Assembly: GCA_030583745.1 (NCBI GenBank)
Contig: CP129473.1
Coordinates: 268,551-332,550 of the forward strand
Origin: Minisyncoccota bacterium
GTDB lineage: Bacteria > Patescibacteriota > Minisyncoccia > Phycocordibacterales > BOKC01
Length of the DNA stretch: 64,000 nt
Direction of reading: 5' to 3'
Shown: positions 16,214-49,414 of the stretch, piece by piece
How the letters are laid out: each line of letters begins with the position of its first letter
Position numbering within the stretch: position 1 is the first letter of the stretch
Position numbers and translations under genes: made by a program
The notes under the pieces: generated by a model
What the model was told of the DNA's origin: nothing
What the model saw: only the letters and a program-made list of their open reading frames with translations
Database searches by the model: none

Positions 16214-16825
16214 ATGGACTGGAAGAAAACGTGGTTCTGGATGGGTGTAACAGCCCTTGTGTTCGGGCTCTTCTGGCACATCTGGCACATTTTCGCTGGA
16301 GAAATTCCGGCGATTCGGGAACTTACTATGTCAGTTGGCGACGAAGAAGAGGAGAGCGCAATCTGGACTCTTCCCTTCGCAGTATCCCATTCGTGGGATA
16401 TGCTGGCGGCTCCCCTCTTCGTTCTTGCTTTCTCTTGGCTTCAGTCGAGAACAGAGGAGGGCACAGACGAAAATGACATACTGGTCGTCGGGCTGGTCTT
16501 CGGGCTGGGCCTCGGGCTGGTCGTCGGGCTGGTCTTCGGGCTGGTCTTCGGGCTGGTCTTCGGGCTGGGCCTCGGGCTGGGCCTCGGGCTGGTCTTCGGG
16601 CTGAGCTTCGGGCTGAGCTTCGGGCTGGGCCTCGGGCTGGTCTTCGGGCTGGGTTTCGGGCTGGGTTTCGGATTCAACTGCGGAATATTCTGGACGATGC
16701 CTCTGGGGGCTGTGTTCGGAGCATTAGTCATTCTGCCAAACACCGTCCTGCTCATTGTTCTCATGGGTTTGAGAGAAGCCATCCGAGGATTCTCCAACAG
16801 CAAGGCGGCTCCTTCAGAATGCTGA
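16214..16825 (+). CDS. High-GC membrane protein with 16 tandem GL(V/G/S)F tetrapeptide repeats
   Basis: RBS AGGAG 6 nt upstream of the ATG. Hydrophobic N- and C-terminal segments. Followed by a GC-rich terminator on the + strand. GC content is well above background. Confidence 0.55.
   Translation: MDWKKTWFWMGVTALVFGLFWHIWHIFAGEIPAIRELTMSVGDEEEESAIWTLPFAVSHSWDMLAAPLFVLAFSWLQSRTEEGTDENDILVVGLVFGLGLGLVVGLVFGLVFGLVFGLGLGLGLGLVFGLSFGLSFGLGLGLVFGLGFGLGFGFNCGIFWTMPLGAVFGALVILPNTVLLIVLMGLREAIRGFSNSKAAPSEC
16483..16675 (+). repeat. Tandem 12-nt repeat (GGKCYTCGGGCT) x ~16 inside the CDS
   Basis: Directly visible: ggtcttcgggct / gggcctcgggct / gagcttcgggct units in perfect register. Confidence 0.85.
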
Positions 16826-37957: not shown

Positions 37958-38065
37958 GTTACTAGGTTTATTAAGCTCTAGGCTTTAGGCACTAGGAATT
38001 TTTATTAAAGCTAAAGAATAATAGAAAATGTCTAAAAAAGCAACTAGATGTATCCGTCCAGCACA

Positions 38066-38368
38066 TATGAGACTGCTTTGCTGATAATATACTAAAAATA
38101 TACTGCATCGGAATATTATCAAGGAAATTCCTTGATAAGGACATAAGGATATATGATGTTGAATATTATCAAGGAATTTTAAGGATGAATTAAATTATCA
38201 AACAATCTATGACGGCCGTCATAGATTGTTTGATGATTTCTGAAACTGGCATGTTATCTTTTTTGAATACATTAAAAAAACTGCTAAAAAAACCTGTATG
38301 TATTTTTTTGCAAATTTACATATAAGACTTTAAATTAAAGTCTTATATGTATCTGAACTTATGCACTA
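38066..38368. repeat. Left copy of ~300-bp inverted repeat module (contains three internal palindromes)
   Basis: Reverse complement matches 47128-47416 almost base for base. Internal palindromes are at 38116-38138 (TTATCAAGGAAATTCCTTGATAA), 38199-38232 (34-bp perfect CAAACAATCTATGACGGCCGTCATAGATTGTTTG) and 38318-38350 (ACATATAAGACTTTAAATTAAAGTCTTATATGT). Confidence 0.85.
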
Positions 38369-41065: not shown

Positions 41066-43768
41066 TTAGCTCTTTGTTAGCGCCTCATCCATAAACGGGC
41101 TTTTTTCTACCAAACTCCCCTTTCGGCCTTTTTTGATGTCAAACTTAAATTCCTTGTTCAAGACATCAACCACCACAAACCCACCCCTAACCAAACCTTT
41201 GGAAATAATTAGTGAAGCGACAGGAGAAAGAATCTTGTTCTGGATCAAGCGCCTCATCGGCCGAGCGCCGTACTGTGGGTCAAAGCCGATTTCTGCCAAA
41301 TATTCAATCGCCGCCGGGGTTACTTCAAGTTTAATCTCTTTCTGTTCAAGGCGTTTCGCAATCTCCCCAACTTGAATTTGTGCAATTTGCTTTATAGCTT
41401 CTTTGCTTAAAGTGTCAAAGACAATAATATCGTCCAGACGATTCAAAAATTCCGGCTTGAAATGATCTTTCAAGCTTTCCAATACTTTTTCTTTCATTTC
41501 TTGATAATTTCCAAATCCATCTTTCTCACCGCCAAAGCCAATTTTTTGCATCCGATCAATATATTGAGCGCCGACGTTAGAAGTCAGAACAATAACGGTA
41601 TTTCTAAAATTAATTGTCCGACCTTTGGCATCGGTCAGTCGTCCGTTGTCTAAAATCTGAAGCATGATATTAAAAACTTCCGGATGAGCTTTTTCAATTT
41701 CATCAAATAAGACAACGGAGTAAGGCCTGTGTCTTATTTTTTCAGTAAAAGTTCCGCCTTCTTCAAAACCAACGTAGCCCGGTGGCGCGCCGATAATTTT
41801 TGAAACAGAATGTTTTTCCATATATTCCGACATATCAACTCGAATCAAAGCTTTTTCATTGTCAAACATAAACTCAGCGAGGGCTTTGGTCAATTCAGTT
41901 TTACCAACTCCAGTCGGACCTAAAAAGATAAAAGAACCAATTGGTCTTTCCGGATCAGCAATACCGGCGCGAGAGCGTTTGACGGTATCGGTGATTCTCT
42001 TTACCGCTTCATCTTGACCGATAATACGATTTTTCAACCAATCTTCCATCCTATTCAATTTTTCAGCTTCCGCTTCAAGCATCTTTGAAACCGGCACTCC
42101 AGTCCAACGAGAAACAACCTCGGCAATATCAGTTTCAGTAATTTCTTCTTTTAAAATCCGGCGGAAACTTTGGAGTTTCTTTAGACGCTTTGTTCTTTGA
42201 TCCAACTCCTTTTCTAGAGCTGGTATCTTGCCGTATCTAATTTCGGCCACCAGAGTTAAGTCCGCTTGGCTTTCGGCTTTTTCGGCTTGAATTTTCAAAT
42301 CATCAATTTCTTTCTTGACCGACTTCATTTCCGAAACTGTTTCTTTTTCATTTTTCCACTTTAGCTCAATCTCAGAGGTTTTTTCTTTCAAATCTGCAAT
42401 TTCTTTTTCTATTTCTTTTATTCTGGCTTTGACCTTGCTACTTTTGGAGTCTTTGGAAGACTTGGCTTCTTTCGTTAGAGCCTGTCTTTCTATTTCTAGC
42501 TTCATTATTTTTGACTGTGCTTCTTCAAGAATTGGCGGCATATTTTCCAAAGAAATTTTCAACTGTGAGGCCGCTTCATCTATCAAATCAACCGCCTTGT
42601 CTGGCAAAGATCTGTCAGTGATATAGCGACTTGAAAGATTGACAGCCGAGATAATCGCGTCATCAGTTATCCTAACACCATGATATAGCTCGTACTTTTC
42701 TTTAAGACCACGAAGAATTGTAACAGCATCTTCGATTGAAGGTTCGCTGACAAAAACCGGTTGAAAGCGCCTGGTCAAAGCCGGGTCTTTCTCTATGTAT
42801 TTTTGATATTCTTTCAGGGTGGTCGCGCCAATTGCCCGAAGTTCTCCTTGCGCAAGCGGAGGTTTCAACATATTTGACGCATCAATTGATCCTTCGGCTG
42901 CGCCAGCACCTACAATTGTATGGATTTCATCAATAAAAAGAATTATCTTACCGTTTGAACTTTCTATTTCTTTCAGAATTTTTTTCAACCGATCCTCAAA
43001 TTCTCCGCGGTATTTGGTTCCGGCAACCAAAAGCCCAAGATCCAAAGAAACAAGCTCTTTGTCTTTTAATGATTCAGGCACGTCGCCTTTTGCAATTTTT
43101 ATTGCCAAACCTTCGGCAATAGCGGTCTTGCCAACTCCGGCTTCTCCAATCAATATCGGATTGTTTTTTTTCCTGCGAGACAAAATCTGAATTATTCTTG
43201 AAATTTCAATATCTCTGCCAATCACCGGATCTAATTTGTTTTCCGAAGCCATTTTCGTCAAACTTCTAGTATATTTCGGCAAGAATCTGTATTTTTTAGT
43301 CTGACCAACATCAGTAATCTTGCTATGACGTAATTCCTCAAGAACTTTCAAAACCCTGTCTTTGTCTATTTTAAACTTAGACAATATTTCTTTAGCAACA
43401 GACGGCACCTCGCAAGCGGCAATAAACAAATGTTCCGTTGATACAAATTGGTCGTTTAAGCCCGAAGCGATTTTTGGGCTCAACTCTATGGTTTGAGCCA
43501 GCTCCGGAGTTATGTAGATTTGATAAGAAGGCGCCATGGTTGTTGAGCCTTCCGGCGCTTCGGTCGCGTCCAGAATAGAATCTGTCAAAAGAATGGTGTC
43601 CACTTCCAAACGCTCCAAAATTGAAAACACGATACTCTCTTCCTGCAAGATTAAAGCGGCCAGCAAATGAAGCGGGTTCACATGATTTTGACCTCGCTCA
43701 ATTGCCATCTCGTGAGCTTTTCTGATGGCTTCTTTGGCCTTAGTTGTAAATTGATTGAATGGCGGCAT
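41066..43768 (-). CDS. clpB: ATP-dependent chaperone ClpB
   Basis: Clp_N repeat, two AAA+ modules ([15 protein letters not shown] and [15 protein letters not shown]) and a coiled-coil M-domain. 900 aa. Confidence 0.9.
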
Positions 43769-43853
43769 ATTTAAAAAAGATTAAAACAAAAAAATCTTAA
43801 TCTAAATTGTAAGTTTTTTTAATATGTTTGTCAAATTTAATAATCTAATCTAG

Positions 43854-44621
43854 TTAGTTTCCTTTTTCAGCTTTCAATACATTTATCGGAATAAAAATCG
43901 AACCTCCTACTGAATTTAGACCAACGACTTCCCCCTTCAGATTGACTATAGGGCTCAAACTCTCGTTGTTCAAAATATCAGTTTCAATTGAAGAAAATTT
44001 TGAGACCGCACCTTCTTCGTTTCTAGACAAACTCAAAATCCGTCCGATTGAGACAGAAGTCTTAGATTCTCCCCTCATCGAAATAACCGTTTGTCCGAGC
44101 TGAAGACTGTCTGAATTGGCCAAAACCGCCGGCTTCATTACCGAATCTCCCGGCACCTGCTCGGTCTTAAAAAAAGAGAAGTGTGTAGTATTGAGAGTGC
44201 TGTTGATTTTGGAAATTGAACCATCTGGCAAAACCGCTTCGAAAAACAAACCTCCTGCGGTATCAAGCTTGCCAGTCGCAATAAGCCCGTCTTTGTCCAA
44301 AAGCAAACCCAAACCGACAAAAACTTTTTCTTCGCCAGAAACTCTAAAGATTCTCACCAAACTCGGTTCGTTATTAGCAATAGCTTCTATAACCAAATCC
44401 TCCTCTTGAACAACAACTGTCACTTCTCTTGTCACCACATCTCTAGTCTGTTGAGGCACAATCGTCTCGACAGTTCTCTCAACGACTCTGTTTACTGTTT
44501 GAGTTACGGTCGGCGGAGCTTCTACTAAAAGAGAGTAGGTCATAATACTTGTTGCGACTGAACCAACAAAACTGACTAAAAGTGCCAATAAGATTATTTG
44601 GTTTTTATTAAGATCTTCCAT
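43854..44621 (-). CDS. Membrane-anchored trypsin-like (HtrA-like) domain protein, possibly catalytically degenerate
   Basis: N-terminal TM. C-terminal region aligns to the S1C fold (…NESLSPIVNLKGEVVGLNS…), but a canonical catalytic His is not evident. Confidence 0.4.
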   Translation of the reverse strand: MEDLNKNQIILLALLVSFVGSVATSIMTYSLLVEAPPTVTQTVNRVVERTVETIVPQQTRDVVTREVTVVVQEEDLVIEAIANNEPSLVRIFRVSGEEKVFVGLGLLLDKDGLIATGKLDTAGGLFFEAVLPDGSISKINSTLNTTHFSFFKTEQVPGDSVMKPAVLANSDSLQLGQTVISMRGESKTSVSIGRILSLSRNEEGAVSKFSSIETDILNNESLSPIVNLKGEVVGLNSVGGSIFIPINVLKAEKGN

Positions 44622-44744
44622 ATTTTAAATTATAGCAAAAAACAAAAAAAGATATACAGTGTTTGCAAACCCCTAATCCAAAATCTGTTGATAAATTAAT
44701 GTTTTACATTTAAATCGGCAAAGGATAAAATACATTCCATAAAA

Positions 44745-45239
44745 ATGGAAAAATTTACAACACTCAACAACGAAACATTCTTTATTTTGGCACTAGCATT
44801 ATCATTCGTCGTCGTGTTTTCGCTTTTTTTATGGATTTGGCGGTTAGAAAGAAAAATTAAAAAAATTTTGGGCGGAGGAGTGAGCGCAAATATTGAATCT
44901 GTAATTCTAGAAAACCACAAAAGAATAAAAAGGGTGGAAGAGCAACAAAAAGTAACTATCGAGAGATTAAGTCTGATAGAAAACAAATTAAGAAAAAGTG
45001 TCAGGGCAATAGAAACCATCAGATTTAATCCTTTCAAGGGGGTTGGTGTTGGTGGTAATCAGAGCTTCTCTTCGGCTTTCTTGAACGAAGATGGGGACGG
45101 ATTAGTCTTGTCAGGACTATACTTGAGAGATCGGGTCTCAATTTACGCCAAACCACTAAAAAACCTACAAGCAGAATTTGAACTTTCCGAAGAAGAAAAA
45201 TTGGCTATTAAAAAAGCTCTGGACTCTACTAAAAACTAA
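44745..45239 (+). CDS. Hypothetical protein with N-terminal TM (DUF4446-like)
   Basis: RFNPFKGVGVGGNQSFSSAFLNEDGDGLVLSGLY block. Confidence 0.45.
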   Translation: MEKFTTLNNETFFILALALSFVVVFSLFLWIWRLERKIKKILGGGVSANIESVILENHKRIKRVEEQQKVTIERLSLIENKLRKSVRAIETIRFNPFKGVGVGGNQSFSSAFLNEDGDGLVLSGLYLRDRVSIYAKPLKNLQAEFELSEEEKLAIKKALDSTKN

Positions 45240-45314
45240 ATACAGGTTTTGCGAATTAGGTTTTTCAAGCCGATTTTTGTTATTGGACAATAACACTAAA
45301 AAATGTAAACTCTA

Positions 45315-46844
45315 TTGAATATGCCCGAAAAAAAACAGAAAAAACAAGGAACGAAACAGCGCTCGCCTATTGTTGTGGTTATGGGGCATATTGATCATGG
45401 CAAATCAACACTTCTTGATTACATCAGGAAAACCAAAATTACAGAAAACGAAAAAGGTGGAATAACACAACATATGGGTGCTTACGAAGTTGAAACTGCA
45501 CCAAACAAAAAAATTACTTTTCTAGACACCCCGGGGCATGAGGCCTTTCAAGCCATAAGATCGCGAGGGGCCAAAGTCGCTGACATCGCTGTATTGGTTG
45601 TGGCGGCAGACGACGGCGTCAAACCCCAAACCCTTGAAGCACTGAAGTGTATTCGCGAAGAAGAAATGCCCTTTGTCGTCGCCATCAACAAAATCGATAA
45701 ACCAGACGCAAATATAGAAAAAACAAAAAATGATCTAGCCGAAAACGAAATTTTTTTGGAAGGATTCGGCGGAGATGTGCCTTTCGCCGCCATCTCTGCA
45801 AAAACCGGAGAAAATATAAACGAGCTTTTAGATTTACTCTGGCTTATGGCTGAAATGGAAGAATTGAAGGGTGATCCAGAAATCTTGGCCGAGGGCGTTG
45901 TTCTTGAAAGCCATTTAGATCCCAAAAAGGGTGTGGCGGCGACGCTCGTCATCAAAGACGGAACTTTAAAAAAAGGATTGTTTGTTGCGACTAGCGAAGC
46001 GTTAGCCCCGGTCCGAATTATGGAAAGCTTTCTTGGAGAAAATATTTCGGAAGCCAGTTTCTCAAATCCAATTAGATTAGTTGGCTGGAATGTAATGCCA
46101 AAAGTCGGAGAAATTTTTAAAGCTTTTAAAACCAAAAAGGAAGCCGAAGTGTTTATTATCTCATCAAAATTGATTGGAAAAAACCCCGACCGAAGTGAGA
46201 ATGGTGCAAGAGAGCAAAACAGAAAAACAATAGTTCCGGTAATAATAAAAGCTGATACCGCCGGAGGTGTCGAAGGGGTTGAACATGAATTGAAAAAACT
46301 TGGAAACGAACATCTGGAGTTTAAAATTTTAAGCTCCGGAATCGGAATAATAACCGAAAAAGACGTGCAGAAAGCCACCGCCGGGCAACAAAAAGGCACA
46401 ATAATCGGCTTTAACGTAAAAATAGACAATTCGGCAAAAAATTTGGCGGAGAGGGACGAAATAATGATAAAAAATTTTGAAATAATTTATAAAATCACTG
46501 AATGGTTGAAAACTGATCTCTCGCAATATTTGCCGAAAATTGAGGTAGAGGAGATCACGGGTAAAGCCAAGATTCTTAAACTCTTTGGCGAACAAAAGGG
46601 ACGCCAAATAGTCGGGGGAAAAGTTCTGGAAGGAGAGATTCCGGCTGACGGACTATTTAGAATTATCCGCCGAGAAAATATTTTAGGAGACGGTCGGATA
46701 AAAGAATTACAACAGAAAAAAGAAAAATCTGGAAAAGTGGAGGCCGGCAACGAATTCGGAGCCCTTTTGGAAGCAAAACAGGAGGTAGCCGCCGGTGACA
46801 CTTTAGAAATTTATAAGAAGGTCTTCCAGACAATAAAAATCTGA
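45315..46844 (+). CDS. infB: Translation initiation factor IF-2 (short form)
   Basis: G-domain motifs GHIDHGKST, DTPGHEAF and NKID. Beta-barrel domains II and IV. Confidence 0.9.
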   Translation: MNMPEKKQKKQGTKQRSPIVVVMGHIDHGKSTLLDYIRKTKITENEKGGITQHMGAYEVETAPNKKITFLDTPGHEAFQAIRSRGAKVADIAVLVVAADDGVKPQTLEALKCIREEEMPFVVAINKIDKPDANIEKTKNDLAENEIFLEGFGGDVPFAAISAKTGENINELLDLLWLMAEMEELKGDPEILAEGVVLESHLDPKKGVAATLVIKDGTLKKGLFVATSEALAPVRIMESFLGENISEASFSNPIRLVGWNVMPKVGEIFKAFKTKKEAEVFIISSKLIGKNPDRSENGAREQNRKTIVPVIIKADTAGGVEGVEHELKKLGNEHLEFKILSSGIGIITEKDVQKATAGQQKGTIIGFNVKIDNSAKNLAERDEIMIKNFEIIYKITEWLKTDLSQYLPKIEVEEITGKAKILKLFGEQKGRQIVGGKVLEGEIPADGLFRIIRRENILGDGRIKELQQKKEKSGKVEAGNEFGALLEAKQEVAAGDTLEIYKKVFQTIKI

Positions 46845-47134
46845 TGCGGCCTTACAAAAAAGAAAAGGTGGAAGAGATTTTGCACCATGCGGCCGCTGAA
46901 TTTTTTAGAAAAGAATCAGGACCGCAATCGCTTTTGACGGTCGTTGGTGTCAATTTTGACGAAAAGAAAAAAAGAGCAGTTATTCTTTTCAGTATTTTGC
47001 CTGTAGAAAAAACAAAATCAGCAATTGATTTTATTGAGAGACAGAAAAGAGATTTTATTGACTATTTAAAGAAGAATACAAAAATGAAAATTATTCCGTT
47101 TATTTCTTTTGAGTTGTCACCAATAATTGCATAA
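46844..47134 (+). CDS. rbfA: Ribosome-binding factor A
   Basis: 96-aa KH-like protein immediately downstream of infB with an overlapping stop/start. Conserved synteny. Confidence 0.6.
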   Translation: MRPYKKEKVEEILHHAAAEFFRKESGPQSLLTVVGVNFDEKKKRAVILFSILPVEKTKSAIDFIERQKRDFIDYLKKNTKMKIIPFISFELSPIIA

Positions 47135-47416
47135 GTTCAGATACATATAAGACTTTAAATTAATCTTATATGTAAATTTGCAAAAAAATACATACAGGTT
47201 TTTTTAGCAGTTTTTTTAATGTATTCAAAAAAGATAACATGCTAGTTTCAGAAATCATCAAACAATCTATGACGGCCGTCACAGATTGTTTGATAATTTA
47301 ATTCATCCTTAAAATTCCTTGATAACATTCAACATCATATATCCTTATGTCCTTATCAAGGAATTTCCTTGATAATATTCTGATGCAATATATTTTTAGT
47401 ACGTTGTCAGCAAAGG
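47128..47416. repeat. Right copy of ~300-bp inverted repeat module
   Basis: Near-identical to the reverse complement of 38066-38368. Begins inside the rbfA stop codon. Contains the 34-bp palindrome (one mismatch) at 47259-47292. Confidence 0.85.
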
Positions 47417-47448
47417 GGTCTCGTATGCGCTGGACTAGTACAATAATT

Positions 47449-47477
47449 TGACTATCGGCTTTTTGCTCAATAGAATA
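47449..47477 (+). promoter_or_regulatory. Sigma70-like promoter for the tRNA cluster
   Basis: TTGACT, 17-bp spacer, then TAGAAT, about 15 nt before tRNA-Cys. Confidence 0.45.
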
Positions 47478-47493
47478 GTAACTGTCGATAGGT

Positions 47494-47565
47494 GGTGGCG
47501 TAGACAAGTGGTAAGTCAAGAGTCTGCAAAACTCTTATGCGGCGGTTCGATTCCGCCCGCCACCT
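47494..47565 (+). tRNA. tRNA-Cys (anticodon GCA)
   Basis: Acceptor GGTGGCG/CGCCACC, anticodon stem AGAGT/ACTCT with loop CTGCAAA, T-arm GGCGG-TTCGATT-CCGCC. Confidence 0.8.
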
Positions 47566-47570
47566 CATGT

Positions 47571-47652
47571 GCCCGGGTGGCGTAATTGGTAGCCGCAATC
47601 GACTTAAGATCGATCGCCGTAAGGCATGCGAGTTCGAGTCTCGCCCCGGGCA
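47571..47652 (+). tRNA. tRNA-Leu (anticodon TAA)
   Basis: Acceptor GCCCGGG/CCCGGGC, anticodon loop CTTAAGA, long variable arm. Confidence 0.85.
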
Positions 47653-47654
47653 TC

Positions 47655-47770
47655 AGACCGCCCATAGCTGTCTTGGTAGATATGAAGTTAGGTAACCGCT
47701 ATAGCTGTCTTGGTAGATATGAAGTTAGATGACCGCCCATAGCTGTTTTGGTAGATATGAAGTTAGATGA
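47655..47770 (+). repeat. Three tandem ~38-bp copies of the 5' end of tRNA-Lys fused to a common 22-nt tail
   Basis: The unit (at)gaccgcccatagctgtcttggtagatatgaagttag occurs three times. The first 14-16 nt equal the 5' end of the intact tRNA-Lys that follows. Confidence 0.75.
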
Positions 47771-47843
47771 CCGCCCATAGCTCAGTTGGCAGAGCAGTCG
47801 CCTCTTAAGCGAACGGTCGTAGGTTCAAATCCTACTGGGCGGA
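47771..47843 (+). tRNA. tRNA-Lys (anticodon CTT)
   Basis: Acceptor CCGCCCA/TGGGCGG, D-arm GCTC-AGTTGGCA-GAGC, anticodon loop CTCTTAA, T-arm GTAGG-TTCAAAT-CCTAC. Confidence 0.7.
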
Positions 47844-47883
47844 TAGCCATGATTTAGAGTTTAGAAATTAGAAATTAAGTTTT

Positions 47884-47965
47884 GGGCGAGTGGCGTAATT
47901 GGTAGCCGCGCTGCGCTTAGGACGCAGTGGAGTAATCCGTGGAGGTTCGAGTCCTCTCTCGCCCA
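47884..47965 (+). tRNA. tRNA-Leu (anticodon TAG)
   Basis: Acceptor GGGCGAG/CTCGCCC, anticodon stem CTGCG/CGCAG with loop CTTAGGA, long variable arm. Confidence 0.85.
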
Positions 47966-47977
47966 TAAAATATCAAA

Positions 47978-48010
47978 AAAAAAGAAGGCCACGCGAGGTG
48001 CGTGGCCTTT
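47978..48010. terminator. Bidirectional rho-independent terminator at the tRNA-cluster / island boundary
   Basis: A9-GGCCACGC-gaggt-GCGTGGCC-TTT. Confidence 0.7.
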
Positions 48011-48035
48011 AGGGTTACGTTGTTGCTTCAGGAGG

Positions 48036-48613
48036 TTACGAACCGCCGGACCTGGAGGTGGCACCGGAGTTGGAGTCGGCATTTCCACCTGCTCCGCCCT
48101 GTCCCGTGGCCGTGGCAGACGACCCACCTCCTTCCTGTGTCACGTTCGTCCTCGCGGGGCGAAGCACGTATGCACCACCCACAATTCCTGCCGGCATTGC
48201 GACAGACTCCAGGATGCTCCGAGAATTAGCGTCCGAAGCGCCGAGATGCCAAGACTCCCCTGTAAGTTCGTTGAGAAGGTGGCTGTCGAAGCGCTTCAGT
48301 CCCGGAGAAAGGAGACCAGCCGGGGAATTGCTCTCCACCGTCTGATGCCACAAACTCCAATGTCGAACAACTGGGATCATCATCTGAGACGTGGTTTGAG
48401 ACATGCCCTGAGACATGCCTTGGACGTCGGCGTAGTTTTGGAGAGTGTCCGGGTTCGAGTCGTTGTTGGTGTTGTTGTGGGCCATGCCCCTGGCTTCTGC
48501 CAGGTCCACGGCAGAGAAAAGCTCCACCGGACGATGAGCTGTGACCGTAGTGGAACATCCACTCACGACGACAGTCACGATCAGTCCGAACAGACAGACA
48601 ACAATCTTCATCA
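48036..48613 (-). CDS. Putative lipoprotein with Gly/Ser-rich C-terminus (high-GC)
   Basis: RBS AAGGGAG. Signal peptide ending in lipobox LVVSGC. Start set at the MMKIVV ATG. Confidence 0.55.
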
Positions 48614-48652
48614 TCACTGATCTCCCTTTCTTTTGTTCTGTTGATTCTCTTT

Positions 48653-49414
48653 TCAACTCCACACGATGTGGATTCTGAATGGTGGAGGCCATCTCCGCCA
48701 CATACCTTCTACGAAAAAAATGAAGCCCTCGTCAAACTCACGAATCGGCACGTCTTTGAAGATCAGTTTTTCTTCGGGAAAGTTGTCGTGAGTAAGTACC
48801 ACCATTTTTGCCCTCCGGTCATTTAGGGTCGGTGGTGACTGAGAAGAAAGTGTTTCGGGCTTCACCTTTTCATTCAGCCGGTTTTCTAGACGACTGACAG
48901 CTGAGTTGACCTCGGCGATTTCTTGCCGAAGCTTCTCCTGCTCTGCCCGGTCGCCTTGGCCGGCAACGCTTAGAGCAAAGACGTCGCTAAGTTTAGTGTT
49001 GATGTCTTGTAGTGTGCCGGTGAGAGCCGAGAGATTTTCCCGAATTTCTCCGAGAGAATCCTCGACGCTTCCCTGCTGACCTTGGAGTTGCGAGAACTCC
49101 AACGCCAGCTGATTGACCCTGATCGTGAGATCCTGAACGGACTTCGCGATCAGGTCTTCTTCCGGTTCCGGCTCAACAGCCAGAGCTTTGACTTCTTCGG
49201 ACTTCTGCTCTACTTGATCTTCTTCCGGTTTCTCCTCTCTTTCTGTTTCCCCCTCCGTCACTTCGGACTTCTTCTCGTCCTCCGATTTGGACGCGGTTGC
49301 TGACTCCGCAACCTTCTGATTCGCCGACTGGTCAAAATCCGGGGCATTAACATACCCCAAAACAGCGACACAGAGCGCCACAAGCGCTCCAAAAACCCGA
49401 GTGAAATCCCTCAT
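48653..49414 (-). CDS. Secreted acidic coiled-coil protein (high-GC)
   Basis: Signal peptide, a Glu/Lys-rich region and heptad-like segments. RBS AGAGGGG upstream. Confidence 0.55.
   Translation of the reverse strand: MRDFTRVFGALVALCVAVLGYVNAPDFDQSANQKVAESATASKSEDEKKSEVTEGETEREEKPEEDQVEQKSEEVKALAVEPEPEEDLIAKSVQDLTIRVNQLALEFSQLQGQQGSVEDSLGEIRENLSALTGTLQDINTKLSDVFALSVAGQGDRAEQEKLRQEIAEVNSAVSRLENRLNEKVKPETLSSQSPPTLNDRRAKMVVLTHDNFPEEKLIFKDVPIREFDEGFIFFVEGMWRRWPPPFRIHIVWS

Follow-up and report, generated by a model that had tools for sequence, protein, structure and literature searches.

Why should a tRNA gene in a streamlined bacterial genome be preceded by three truncated copies of its own 5' end? 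The question is raised by a 64,000-nucleotide stretch of chromosomal DNA, here called the window (contig CP129473.1 of assembly GCA_030583745.1, positions 268,551 to 332,550), from a Patescibacterium of the Parcubacteria/Paceibacteria type with a GC content of about 39%. Within it, a short repeat array lies directly upstream of an intact tRNA-Lys(CTT) gene. A preliminary description, made from the letters alone, had related this array mainly to repeated integration and excision at a tRNA attachment site (attB). Here, we compare the array with other contigs of the same species and with related lineages, and we come to a different answer: the array is probably a tandem triplication of an older leader module of tRNA-Lys, a truncated tRNA copy that we term a pseudo-5' half.

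Tandem Repeats Finder reports a repeat at window positions 47656-47782 with a period of 38, 3.4 copies, 91% matches and a score of 219. The array proper comprises 113 nt (47656-47768) and consists of head-to-tail units (U1, U2 and U3) of 38, 37 and 38 nt. Each unit is composed of a 14-nt head (GA followed by tRNA-Lys(CTT) positions 1-12) and a 24-nt tail (the 22-nt GTCTTGGTAGATATGAAGTTAG plus two bases). The heads of U1 and U3 are identical to the start of the tRNA-Lys gene over 14 nt and U2 carries the variant CCGCTATAGCT. The tails of U1 and U2 are identical and read GTCTTGG, and the U3 tail has GTTTTGG, the variant of most relatives. Both the program and direct reading of the letters confirm the three tandem truncated copies that had been noted upstream of the intact gene, and the variant in U2 and the T-for-C change in the U3 tail are as first described. 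The leading 'at' that had been ascribed to the units is present before U3 and the gene itself; it is lacking at U1, which follows 'tca', and at U2, which follows 'gt'. The array starts 3 nt past the discriminator base of tRNA-Leu(TAA), and a GA at 47769-70 separates U3 from tRNA-Lys(CTT). Three occurrences of the 22-nt tail are found in the window and none elsewhere there, with 0.00 expected from 100 dinucleotide-preserving shuffles; the 14-nt head occurs exactly three times, compared with 0.16 expected from such shuffles. Partial copies of the other tRNAs of the window were not found in it. The tail of the unit retains a weak similarity to the D-loop (TTGG-AGA), and the most fitting description of the unit is tRNA positions 1-22, with CAG at positions 13-15 replaced by GTC or GTT, plus a 16-nt linker. 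The core of the module is TAGCTGTYTTGGTAG. Because CAG is changed to GTY at positions 13-15, the module cannot form a D-stem. Two other interpretations of the period were rejected. In a CRISPR array the tails would be the spacers, and these are identical or 1 nt apart, which leaves a plain tandem repeat of period 38; an array that codes for a repeated peptide would not have a period that is not divisible by 3.

Three contigs of the same species, from three assemblies, cross the site and are 97-100% identical to the window (L057, JAANMV010007060.1; L134, Logan run SRR23332755; L153, JAANMT010005520.1; loci are given as L numbers throughout). The Logan run also yielded a contig that is 100% identical to window 42844-47157. 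All three site-crossing contigs read tRNA-Leu(TAA)-tcaGA-tRNA-Lys: exactly 113 nt are missing and the flanks are identical. Thus, the array is a strain-variable indel that is bounded by direct repeats. At k of 17 or more, no collapse of the array in a de Bruijn graph can generate the k-mer at the array-less junction, and hence the array-less allele is real and apparently the common one. A fourth allele is seen in another contig of the species, L001, which diverges 1 nt past tRNA-Leu(TAA) into a different element (acgaacgaagt...) and stops there. It might be argued that the array itself is the product of an assembler that mis-joined reads or over-expanded a short repeat, since no independent assembly holds it and the three contigs of the species are without it. 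A look-up of an array-specific open reading frame (ORF) of 52 aa, which returned no record, also fits such a view; that of an overlapping minus-strand ORF returned only an array-less contig. However, the units differ from each other at defined positions, and the 24-nt tail, which is missing from the array-less allele, has a homologue in the leader of other genera (31/38 with L137). An assembler could not invent such a tail, and an artefact is therefore very unlikely.

This homology came from a metagenome scan with the tRNA-Lys 5' sequence, which yielded at least 120 loci, and from look-ups guided by IF-2, which added syntenic loci from six related lineages. At least six other lineages have one or two copies of a homologous module immediately 5' of tRNA-Lys (Table 1), which is what the preliminary description had expected of a conserved leader element; L142, L146 and L152 carry no unit. 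The signature of this GTYTTGG-type module is CCGCCCATAGCT-GTYTTGGTAG. An alignment of 11 units (alignment A2) has A9, G10, T12, T16, T17, G18, G19 and A21 invariant, with TA-GCTGT-YTTGGTAG as the core. When the tRNA region of the window was compared with L137 and L148 by sensitive blastn, the cluster promoter and the unit were the sole non-tRNA intergenic alignments. The match given above for L137 is that of U3 with the single unit there, and identity is 87.5% over 112 nt when the tRNA is included. Arrays with two or more pseudo copies also occur in L066, L069, L148 and L114. The sister lineages L142 and L150, whose IF-2 proteins are 88% identical, have 0 and 1 unit, respectively, so that gain or loss must be rapid. 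Judged from these comparisons, the module predates the strain of the window. It is either old or mobile, its distribution is wide but patchy, and copies of it come and go easily.

Table 1. Features of the tRNA-Lys locus in the window and units of the module in related lineages
Feature	Window position	Strand	Description
Putative promoter of the tRNA cluster, sigma-70-like	47448..47476	+	TTGACT, 17-nt spacer, TAGAAT; 10/12 matches in the scan
tRNA-Cys(GCA), first gene of the cluster	47494..47566	+	ARAGORN; Rfam 65.6 bits
tRNA-Leu(TAA)	47570..47654	+	ARAGORN; Rfam 47571-47652
Unit 1	47656..47693	+	38 nt; head GACCGCCCATAGCT, tail GTCTTGGTAGATATGAAGTTAG + GT
Unit 2	47694..47730	+	37 nt; degenerate head AACCGC-TATAGCT, tail GTCTTGGTAGATATGAAGTTAG + AT
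Unit 3	47731..47768	+	38 nt; head GACCGCCCATAGCT, tail GTTTTGGTAGATATGAAGTTAG + AT
tRNA-Lys(CTT), intact	47771..47843	+	ARAGORN; Rfam 68 bits
tRNA-Leu(TAG), last gene of the cluster	47883..47966	+	ARAGORN; Rfam
Terminator of the convergent gene 48036-48701	47985..48009	-	GC-rich hairpin and T-run; terminator scan
Module in L137			1 unit, 38 nt; CCACACATAGCTGTTTTGGTAGACATAAACTTAAAAAA
Module in L148			2 degenerate units; proximal unit ends TTGGTAGATATGAGTTTGATAAT
Module in L150			1 unit; CCGCCTG-AGCTGTTTTGGTAG...; pseudo-acceptor CCGCCTG is that of the genome's own tRNA
Module in L130			1 unit; after tRNA-Leu(TAA), as in the window
Module in L066			2 units; upstream of tRNA-Lys(TTT)
Module in L069			2 units; 76-nt units

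How could such an array have arisen? The module would be a decayed copy of the first ~22 nt of the gene, that is the acceptor 5' strand, U8-A9 and the D-arm, together with the 16-nt linker. Amplification to three copies may have occurred by unequal recombination or by slipped-strand mispairing between repeated units. Slippage, a secondary option of the preliminary description, fits the precise polymorphism of 0 versus 3 units, and so does unequal recombination. The proximal unit would have kept the ancestral GTTTTGG; the two distal units share the presumably derived GTCTTGG, which implies at least two duplication steps, and the changes in the U2 head would have followed these. Recombination between the U1 head and the identical first 14 nt of the gene could then delete the whole array precisely and give the array-less allele. 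In the transcript, the array presumably forms a 116-nt spacer within a Cys-Leu-Lys-Leu precursor. The putative promoter lies 17 nt upstream of tRNA-Cys, its -10 region TTTTTGCTCAATAGAAT is kept in L137 and L148, and the terminator hairpin marks the end of the cluster. From this precursor the array would be discarded by the RNase P cut at tRNA-Lys +1 and by 3' trimming of tRNA-Leu. The copy number is most likely neutral or slightly harmful, the latter because each unit could act as a competing partner for the acceptor 3' strand. As for the tRNA genes themselves, tRNA-Lys(CTT) opens with the pair C1:G72 where G1 is usual in bacteria, and CCA is encoded in none of the four genes of the cluster.

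Several points weigh against a simple triplication of a decayed copy. A second assembly with the array was not found and 3/3 of the site-crossing contigs of the species are array-less, so that the copy number of three is seen in the window only. Alleles of the species with one or two units, which stepwise slippage predicts, were not seen either. From the sequences, insertion and deletion look the same, the junctions being equal either way. Finally, the 15-nt core, including GT13-14, is near-invariant across lineages of 57-70% IF-2 identity, whereas the tails diverge. This conservation seems to point to purifying selection or to recent horizontal spread. A purely neutral remnant does not account for a near-invariant core that includes the derived GT13-14, and the retention of these two bases, which gene conversion from the adjacent tRNA would erase, argues for selection or recent spread as well.

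The conservation of the core, which is not shared by the neighbouring intergenic DNA, also favors a function of the unit as a cis-acting leader, a reading that is compatible with an origin by duplication. Two versions can be considered. In the first, the unit would be an internal promoter derived from the D-arm. The sequence TGGTAGATA, which ends 13 nt before the tRNA, resembles an extended -10 element, 17 nt separate TTGGTA from tRNA +1 in the window, L137 and L148 alike, and a D-arm-like TGGTAGAGT is located 10-11 nt upstream of the tRNA in L083 and L095. However, the promoter scan found no promoter in the array, and the last position of the candidate -10 hexamers is not the conserved T and varies among lineages. 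A sigma-70 promoter within the unit is hence not supported. In the second version, free pseudo-acceptor strands would serve as decoys that pair with the acceptor 3' strand and tune the folding of pre-tRNA-Lys and its processing by RNase P, an influence on processing that the preliminary description had also considered. The minimum free energy fold of array plus tRNA does show the first pseudo-acceptor displacing the true 5' strand and pairing with the real 3' strand, so that competition for this strand is possible. Against this, the folding energies are no better than those of shuffles (z = +0.26 to +0.81 for single units and the whole array, z = -1.35 for array plus tRNA, z = -1.1 for the L130 unit), and the idea of the unit as a structured RNA was dropped for this reason. 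A search of Rfam with the region 47440-48020 returned only the four tRNAs at E<=10, as it did at the gathering threshold, and the ~9 independent units are too few for covariation scoring or phylogenetic tests. For both versions, it also counts that the element is dispensable, because the array-less allele is apparently the common one in the species. We therefore consider a functional leader unlikely.

An intact tRNA accompanied by partial copies in direct orientation is what attachment (att) sites classically look like, and the main proposal of the preliminary description was accordingly that the units are integrase scars at a tRNA attB, tied to the GC-richer segment downstream. This segment (48-53 kb) indeed has 46-54% GC compared with ~39% elsewhere, and duplications of tRNA 3' ends 45-160 nt downstream are common in these genomes. 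However, the duplicated segment here is GA plus tRNA positions 1-12, with changes up to position 22, the 3' end is not duplicated, and the repeats are just 24 nt apart. Conservative site-specific recombination leaves no tandem duplication upon excision. When 20 ORFs from 41 to 62 kb, with only some of those below ~100 aa among them, were scanned against Pfam, no recombinase was detected. Neither the 3' end of tRNA-Lys nor that of tRNA-Leu(TAG) recurs elsewhere in the window, and mobility genes were not seen in the segment 48000-53000. The supposed link to a downstream island does not hold, since the array-less contigs L057, L134 and L153 have the same downstream DNA and genes. The tail was also not found in viral, phage or plasmid collections: the 22-nt tail has no exact match in IMG/VR, and blastn of the array returned only tRNA-Lys genes from phages and nothing from plasmids. 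The 17-nt core has 15 matches in IMG/VR, equal to the chance expectation, and these lie in unrelated coding DNA; none is preceded by CCGCC and none has a tRNA in its vicinity. Taken together, scars of an integrase are hardly credible at this locus.

The downstream segment (48-53 kb) encodes a Gly/Ser-rich secreted protein, a coiled-coil protein, a SPFH/Band-7 protein and a 437-aa membrane protein, and 48089-48869 differs among contigs of the species. Beyond it lie six tandem paralogs of small T4SS_pilin/TrbC-like membrane proteins (PF18895; 52821-55302, minus strand), followed by a solute-binding protein, a methyltransferase and GyrA.

How common are such copies at other tRNA genes of the Patescibacteria? 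A copy of the first 12 nt of tRNA-Lys lies on the same strand within 400 nt upstream at 39/106 loci (those with at least 100 nt of upstream sequence, up to 2 differences being allowed), compared with 4 downstream and 8 in reverse orientation. Where both flanks are available, the 5' 12-mer is found again upstream at 18/77 loci and the 3' 12-mer again downstream at 14/77 (controls 0-3). Within the fetched loci, 3' copies 45-160 nt downstream accompany 18/168 non-Lys tRNAs and 9/85 tRNA-Lys genes, and 5' copies upstream accompany 5/168 and 11/85, respectively (controls 0-1 for each). A TAnnnT box ends 4-20 nt upstream of 17/24 pseudo copies (71%) and of 49/77 intact tRNAs that have no pseudo copy (64%); the box is found at 9/24 intact tRNAs that do have one and at 133/600 random positions (22%). 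These promoter-like boxes before the pseudo copies mark the remnant as the ancestral start of the gene, and the DNA from there up to the gene has thus been inserted or duplicated. The content of this interval varies by family and may be the GTYTTGG module, a ~60-nt two-hairpin leader or an ORF of the GIY-YIG nuclease type. The junctions of the pseudo copies fall anywhere from tRNA position 8 to 25, which speaks against a single crossover or target site.

The GIY-YIG ORFs deserve a closer look. Among ~111 tRNA-Lys loci sampled for them, the interval from a pseudo-5' half to the intact tRNA-Lys is exactly occupied by a 78-85-aa ORF (PF01541, E 1e-12 to 3e-19) at five (L114, L119, L089, L074 and L097), and in L041 such an ORF follows a pseudo half and the contig stops before any tRNA. 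The ORFs adjoin the tRNA promoter and lie directly behind it. A profile made from the five cassette proteins recognized 13 ORFs in related loci, five of them between remnant and intact tRNA-Lys, plus that of L041, and none in the window. These ORFs have the appearance of a mobile cassette by which the 5' end of the tRNA is regenerated. The units of the window might be explained along the same lines, as serial insertions of an ORF-less homing-type cassette, each unit being a separate insertion into the D-arm-coding part of tRNA-Lys. Such a cassette would carry a replacement tRNA 5' end, use the tRNA's own sequence as homology arms and depend on a nuclease acting in trans, for example the small GIY-YIG proteins; the conserved core would be its left junction. 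Apart from the ORFs at the five loci and L041, this is favored by the promoter-like -10 boxes, behind which pseudo copies lie as often as do intact tRNAs that have no pseudo copy, by a distribution that is patchy, by the 0/3 polymorphism of the species, and by L150, where the pseudo-acceptor equals the acceptor of the resident tRNA. A precedent exists in phage T4, where SegB is a freestanding GIY-YIG homing endonuclease encoded between tRNA genes of a tRNA gene cluster (PMC2330249). However, a GIY-YIG gene was not found in the window and a GTYTTGG-type unit was not found beside a GIY-YIG ORF, a cargo of 24 nt is too small for autonomy, and the spread of the junctions provides no single target site. 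Moreover, alleles with and without the array do not differ in the tRNA or its flanks, and thus no co-conversion tract is visible. We regard this explanation of the array as possible but doubtful. In its wider form it would make tRNA-Lys of the Patescibacteria the home of an undescribed class of 'gene-regenerating' cassettes that enter the D-arm-coding region and strand the original 5' end behind the promoter, a proposal that we can offer only tentatively. The cargo might then be a GIY-YIG nuclease, a structured ~60-nt RNA or something as minimal as the GTYTTGGTAG module, which is speculative to the same degree. The three units of the window would, with equally low confidence, represent three successive insertions, and the 15-nt core a recognition or junction sequence.

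Other elements at the borders of these tRNA genes were observed along the way. The two-hairpin leader lies ~70 nt upstream of tRNA-Lys in L021, L028, L031, L032, L037, L039, L043, L045, L064, L077 and L096. Its first hairpin (P1) is an acceptor-stem mimic in which a copy of the tRNA 5' strand (CCGCCCAUA) pairs with UAUGGaCGG, and its second (P2) is a 14-bp hairpin in which 10 pairs have compensatory changes in the 11 loci. The leader matches no Rfam family, and Rfam searches of the window and of ten related loci returned tRNAs only. On the 3' side, trailer elements of ~100-170 nt begin with AYGAACGAAGNGAG directly past the discriminator base, contain an inverted copy of T-loop and T-stem, and end with GTACTGANNCTGTAAGNNTCGARTC and a direct copy of the last 12-19 nt of the tRNA. 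They are present in L137 (6047-6215 and 6458-6600), L142 (6248-6418, minus strand) and L001 (4809-4819), and also in L141, L146, L150, L048, L078 and L108. They accompany Leu, Lys, Cys, Arg, Trp and Ala tRNAs and ~11% of the tRNAs in the fetched loci. The window itself has no trailer; in L001, which is of the same species, one follows tRNA-Leu(TAA) at exactly the position of the array. A 16-nt hairpin, TCCGCC-N4-GGCGGA, consists of both ends of the tRNA-Lys acceptor stem. It is found in the pseudo-5' halves of L083, L030, L048/L076, L114, L089, L041 and L115 and in the pseudo-3' half of L074, and never in an intact gene. Its insertion point varies (after tRNA position 9, 12, 14 or 23, or in the T-loop).

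The genes upstream of the cluster encode ClpB, a Trypsin_2-like protein, DUF4446, a short IF-2 of 509 aa and RbfA. Homologues of this IF-2 carry the names Patescibacteria group, Parcubacteria, Paceibacterota and Minisyncoccia, identity to the nearest other lineages is only 57-70%, and an IF-2 protein scan of genome contigs gave only distant archaeal, Chloroflexi and Chlorobi matches. The gene order ClpB...IF-2-RbfA-Cys-Leu-Lys-Leu is kept in relatives. A 315-nt inverted repeat that is 95% complementary (38049-38365 and 47128-47442) brackets an 8.8-kb segment with tRNA-Tyr, ClpB, Trypsin_2, DUF4446, IF-2 and RbfA. L153 has this segment oriented as in the window. The tRNA cluster of L057 is joined to the other arm of the repeat, which implies either an inversion of the segment or a chimeric contig, and the short-read contigs L002-L010 terminate within the repeat. 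Elsewhere in the window, a 12-nt tandem repeat (TCGGGCTGGGCT, 15 copies, 90% match) occupies 16488-16671 in a locally GC-rich kilobase.

How does the array compare with known systems? In the att repeats of tyrosine integrases, which flank prophages and genomic islands, the 3' part of a tRNA, normally from the anticodon loop or T-loop onward, is duplicated, the repeats enclose kilobases of element DNA with an integrase, and a single copy is restored upon excision. The array shares with attL and attR a partial copy in direct orientation beside an intact, regenerated tRNA, and a presence that varies between strains. In contrast to them, it is the 5' 12-22 nt of the tRNA that are duplicated, 24 nt lie between the copies, the arrangement is tandem, and an integrase and a distal repeat were not found. 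With minisatellites (variable number tandem repeats, VNTRs) it has more in common: head-to-tail units of a constant period, here 38, point differences at the level of units, and differences of whole units between close strains, with breakpoints at unit boundaries, 0 versus 3 units in the species and 1-2 units in other lineages. Unlike in a typical VNTR, the unit is derived from a tRNA and has a core that is shared between genera, and its head matches the adjacent gene exactly, so that the whole array can be lost in one step. Thus, the array behaves as a VNTR whose building block is a tRNA-gene remnant, and its resemblance to att sites is superficial. Remnants of tRNA pseudogenes, for example those of animal mitochondrial genomes that follow tandem duplication and random loss, are likewise truncated, decayed copies beside a functional gene. 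Those remnants decay, however, whereas the module is kept across genera with an invariant 15-nt core and has been re-amplified in tandem. For the wider pattern of remnants, T4 SegB appears by analogy to be the closest mechanistic precedent. In related Patescibacteria loci small GIY-YIG genes stand directly at tRNA-Lys, between remnant and intact gene, much as segB stands among tRNA genes. The window differs from this in having no nuclease gene, a duplication of the tRNA 5' end is undescribed for segB, and the nucleases of the Patescibacteria are predictions. We found no description of 5' self-remnants at tRNA genes of Patescibacteria in the searchable literature, which covers few subscription journals.

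Taken alone, the array is a small polymorphic repeat that is probably neutral. In practice, the locus can serve as a strain marker, and it is a site where short-read assemblies break or differ between samples. The array also exposes conserved and possibly mobile modules that border tRNA genes in genomes of this streamlined kind. Short self-duplications are concentrated at both the 5' and the 3' ends of tRNA genes in these ultra-small bacteria; some of the remnants are conserved across genera, some enclose GIY-YIG genes and some contain covarying RNA structures, and none of these remnants is represented in Rfam. If these remnants are indeed homing-type cassettes or cis-acting processing signals, they would represent a new way of colonizing or regulating tRNA genes in streamlined genomes.

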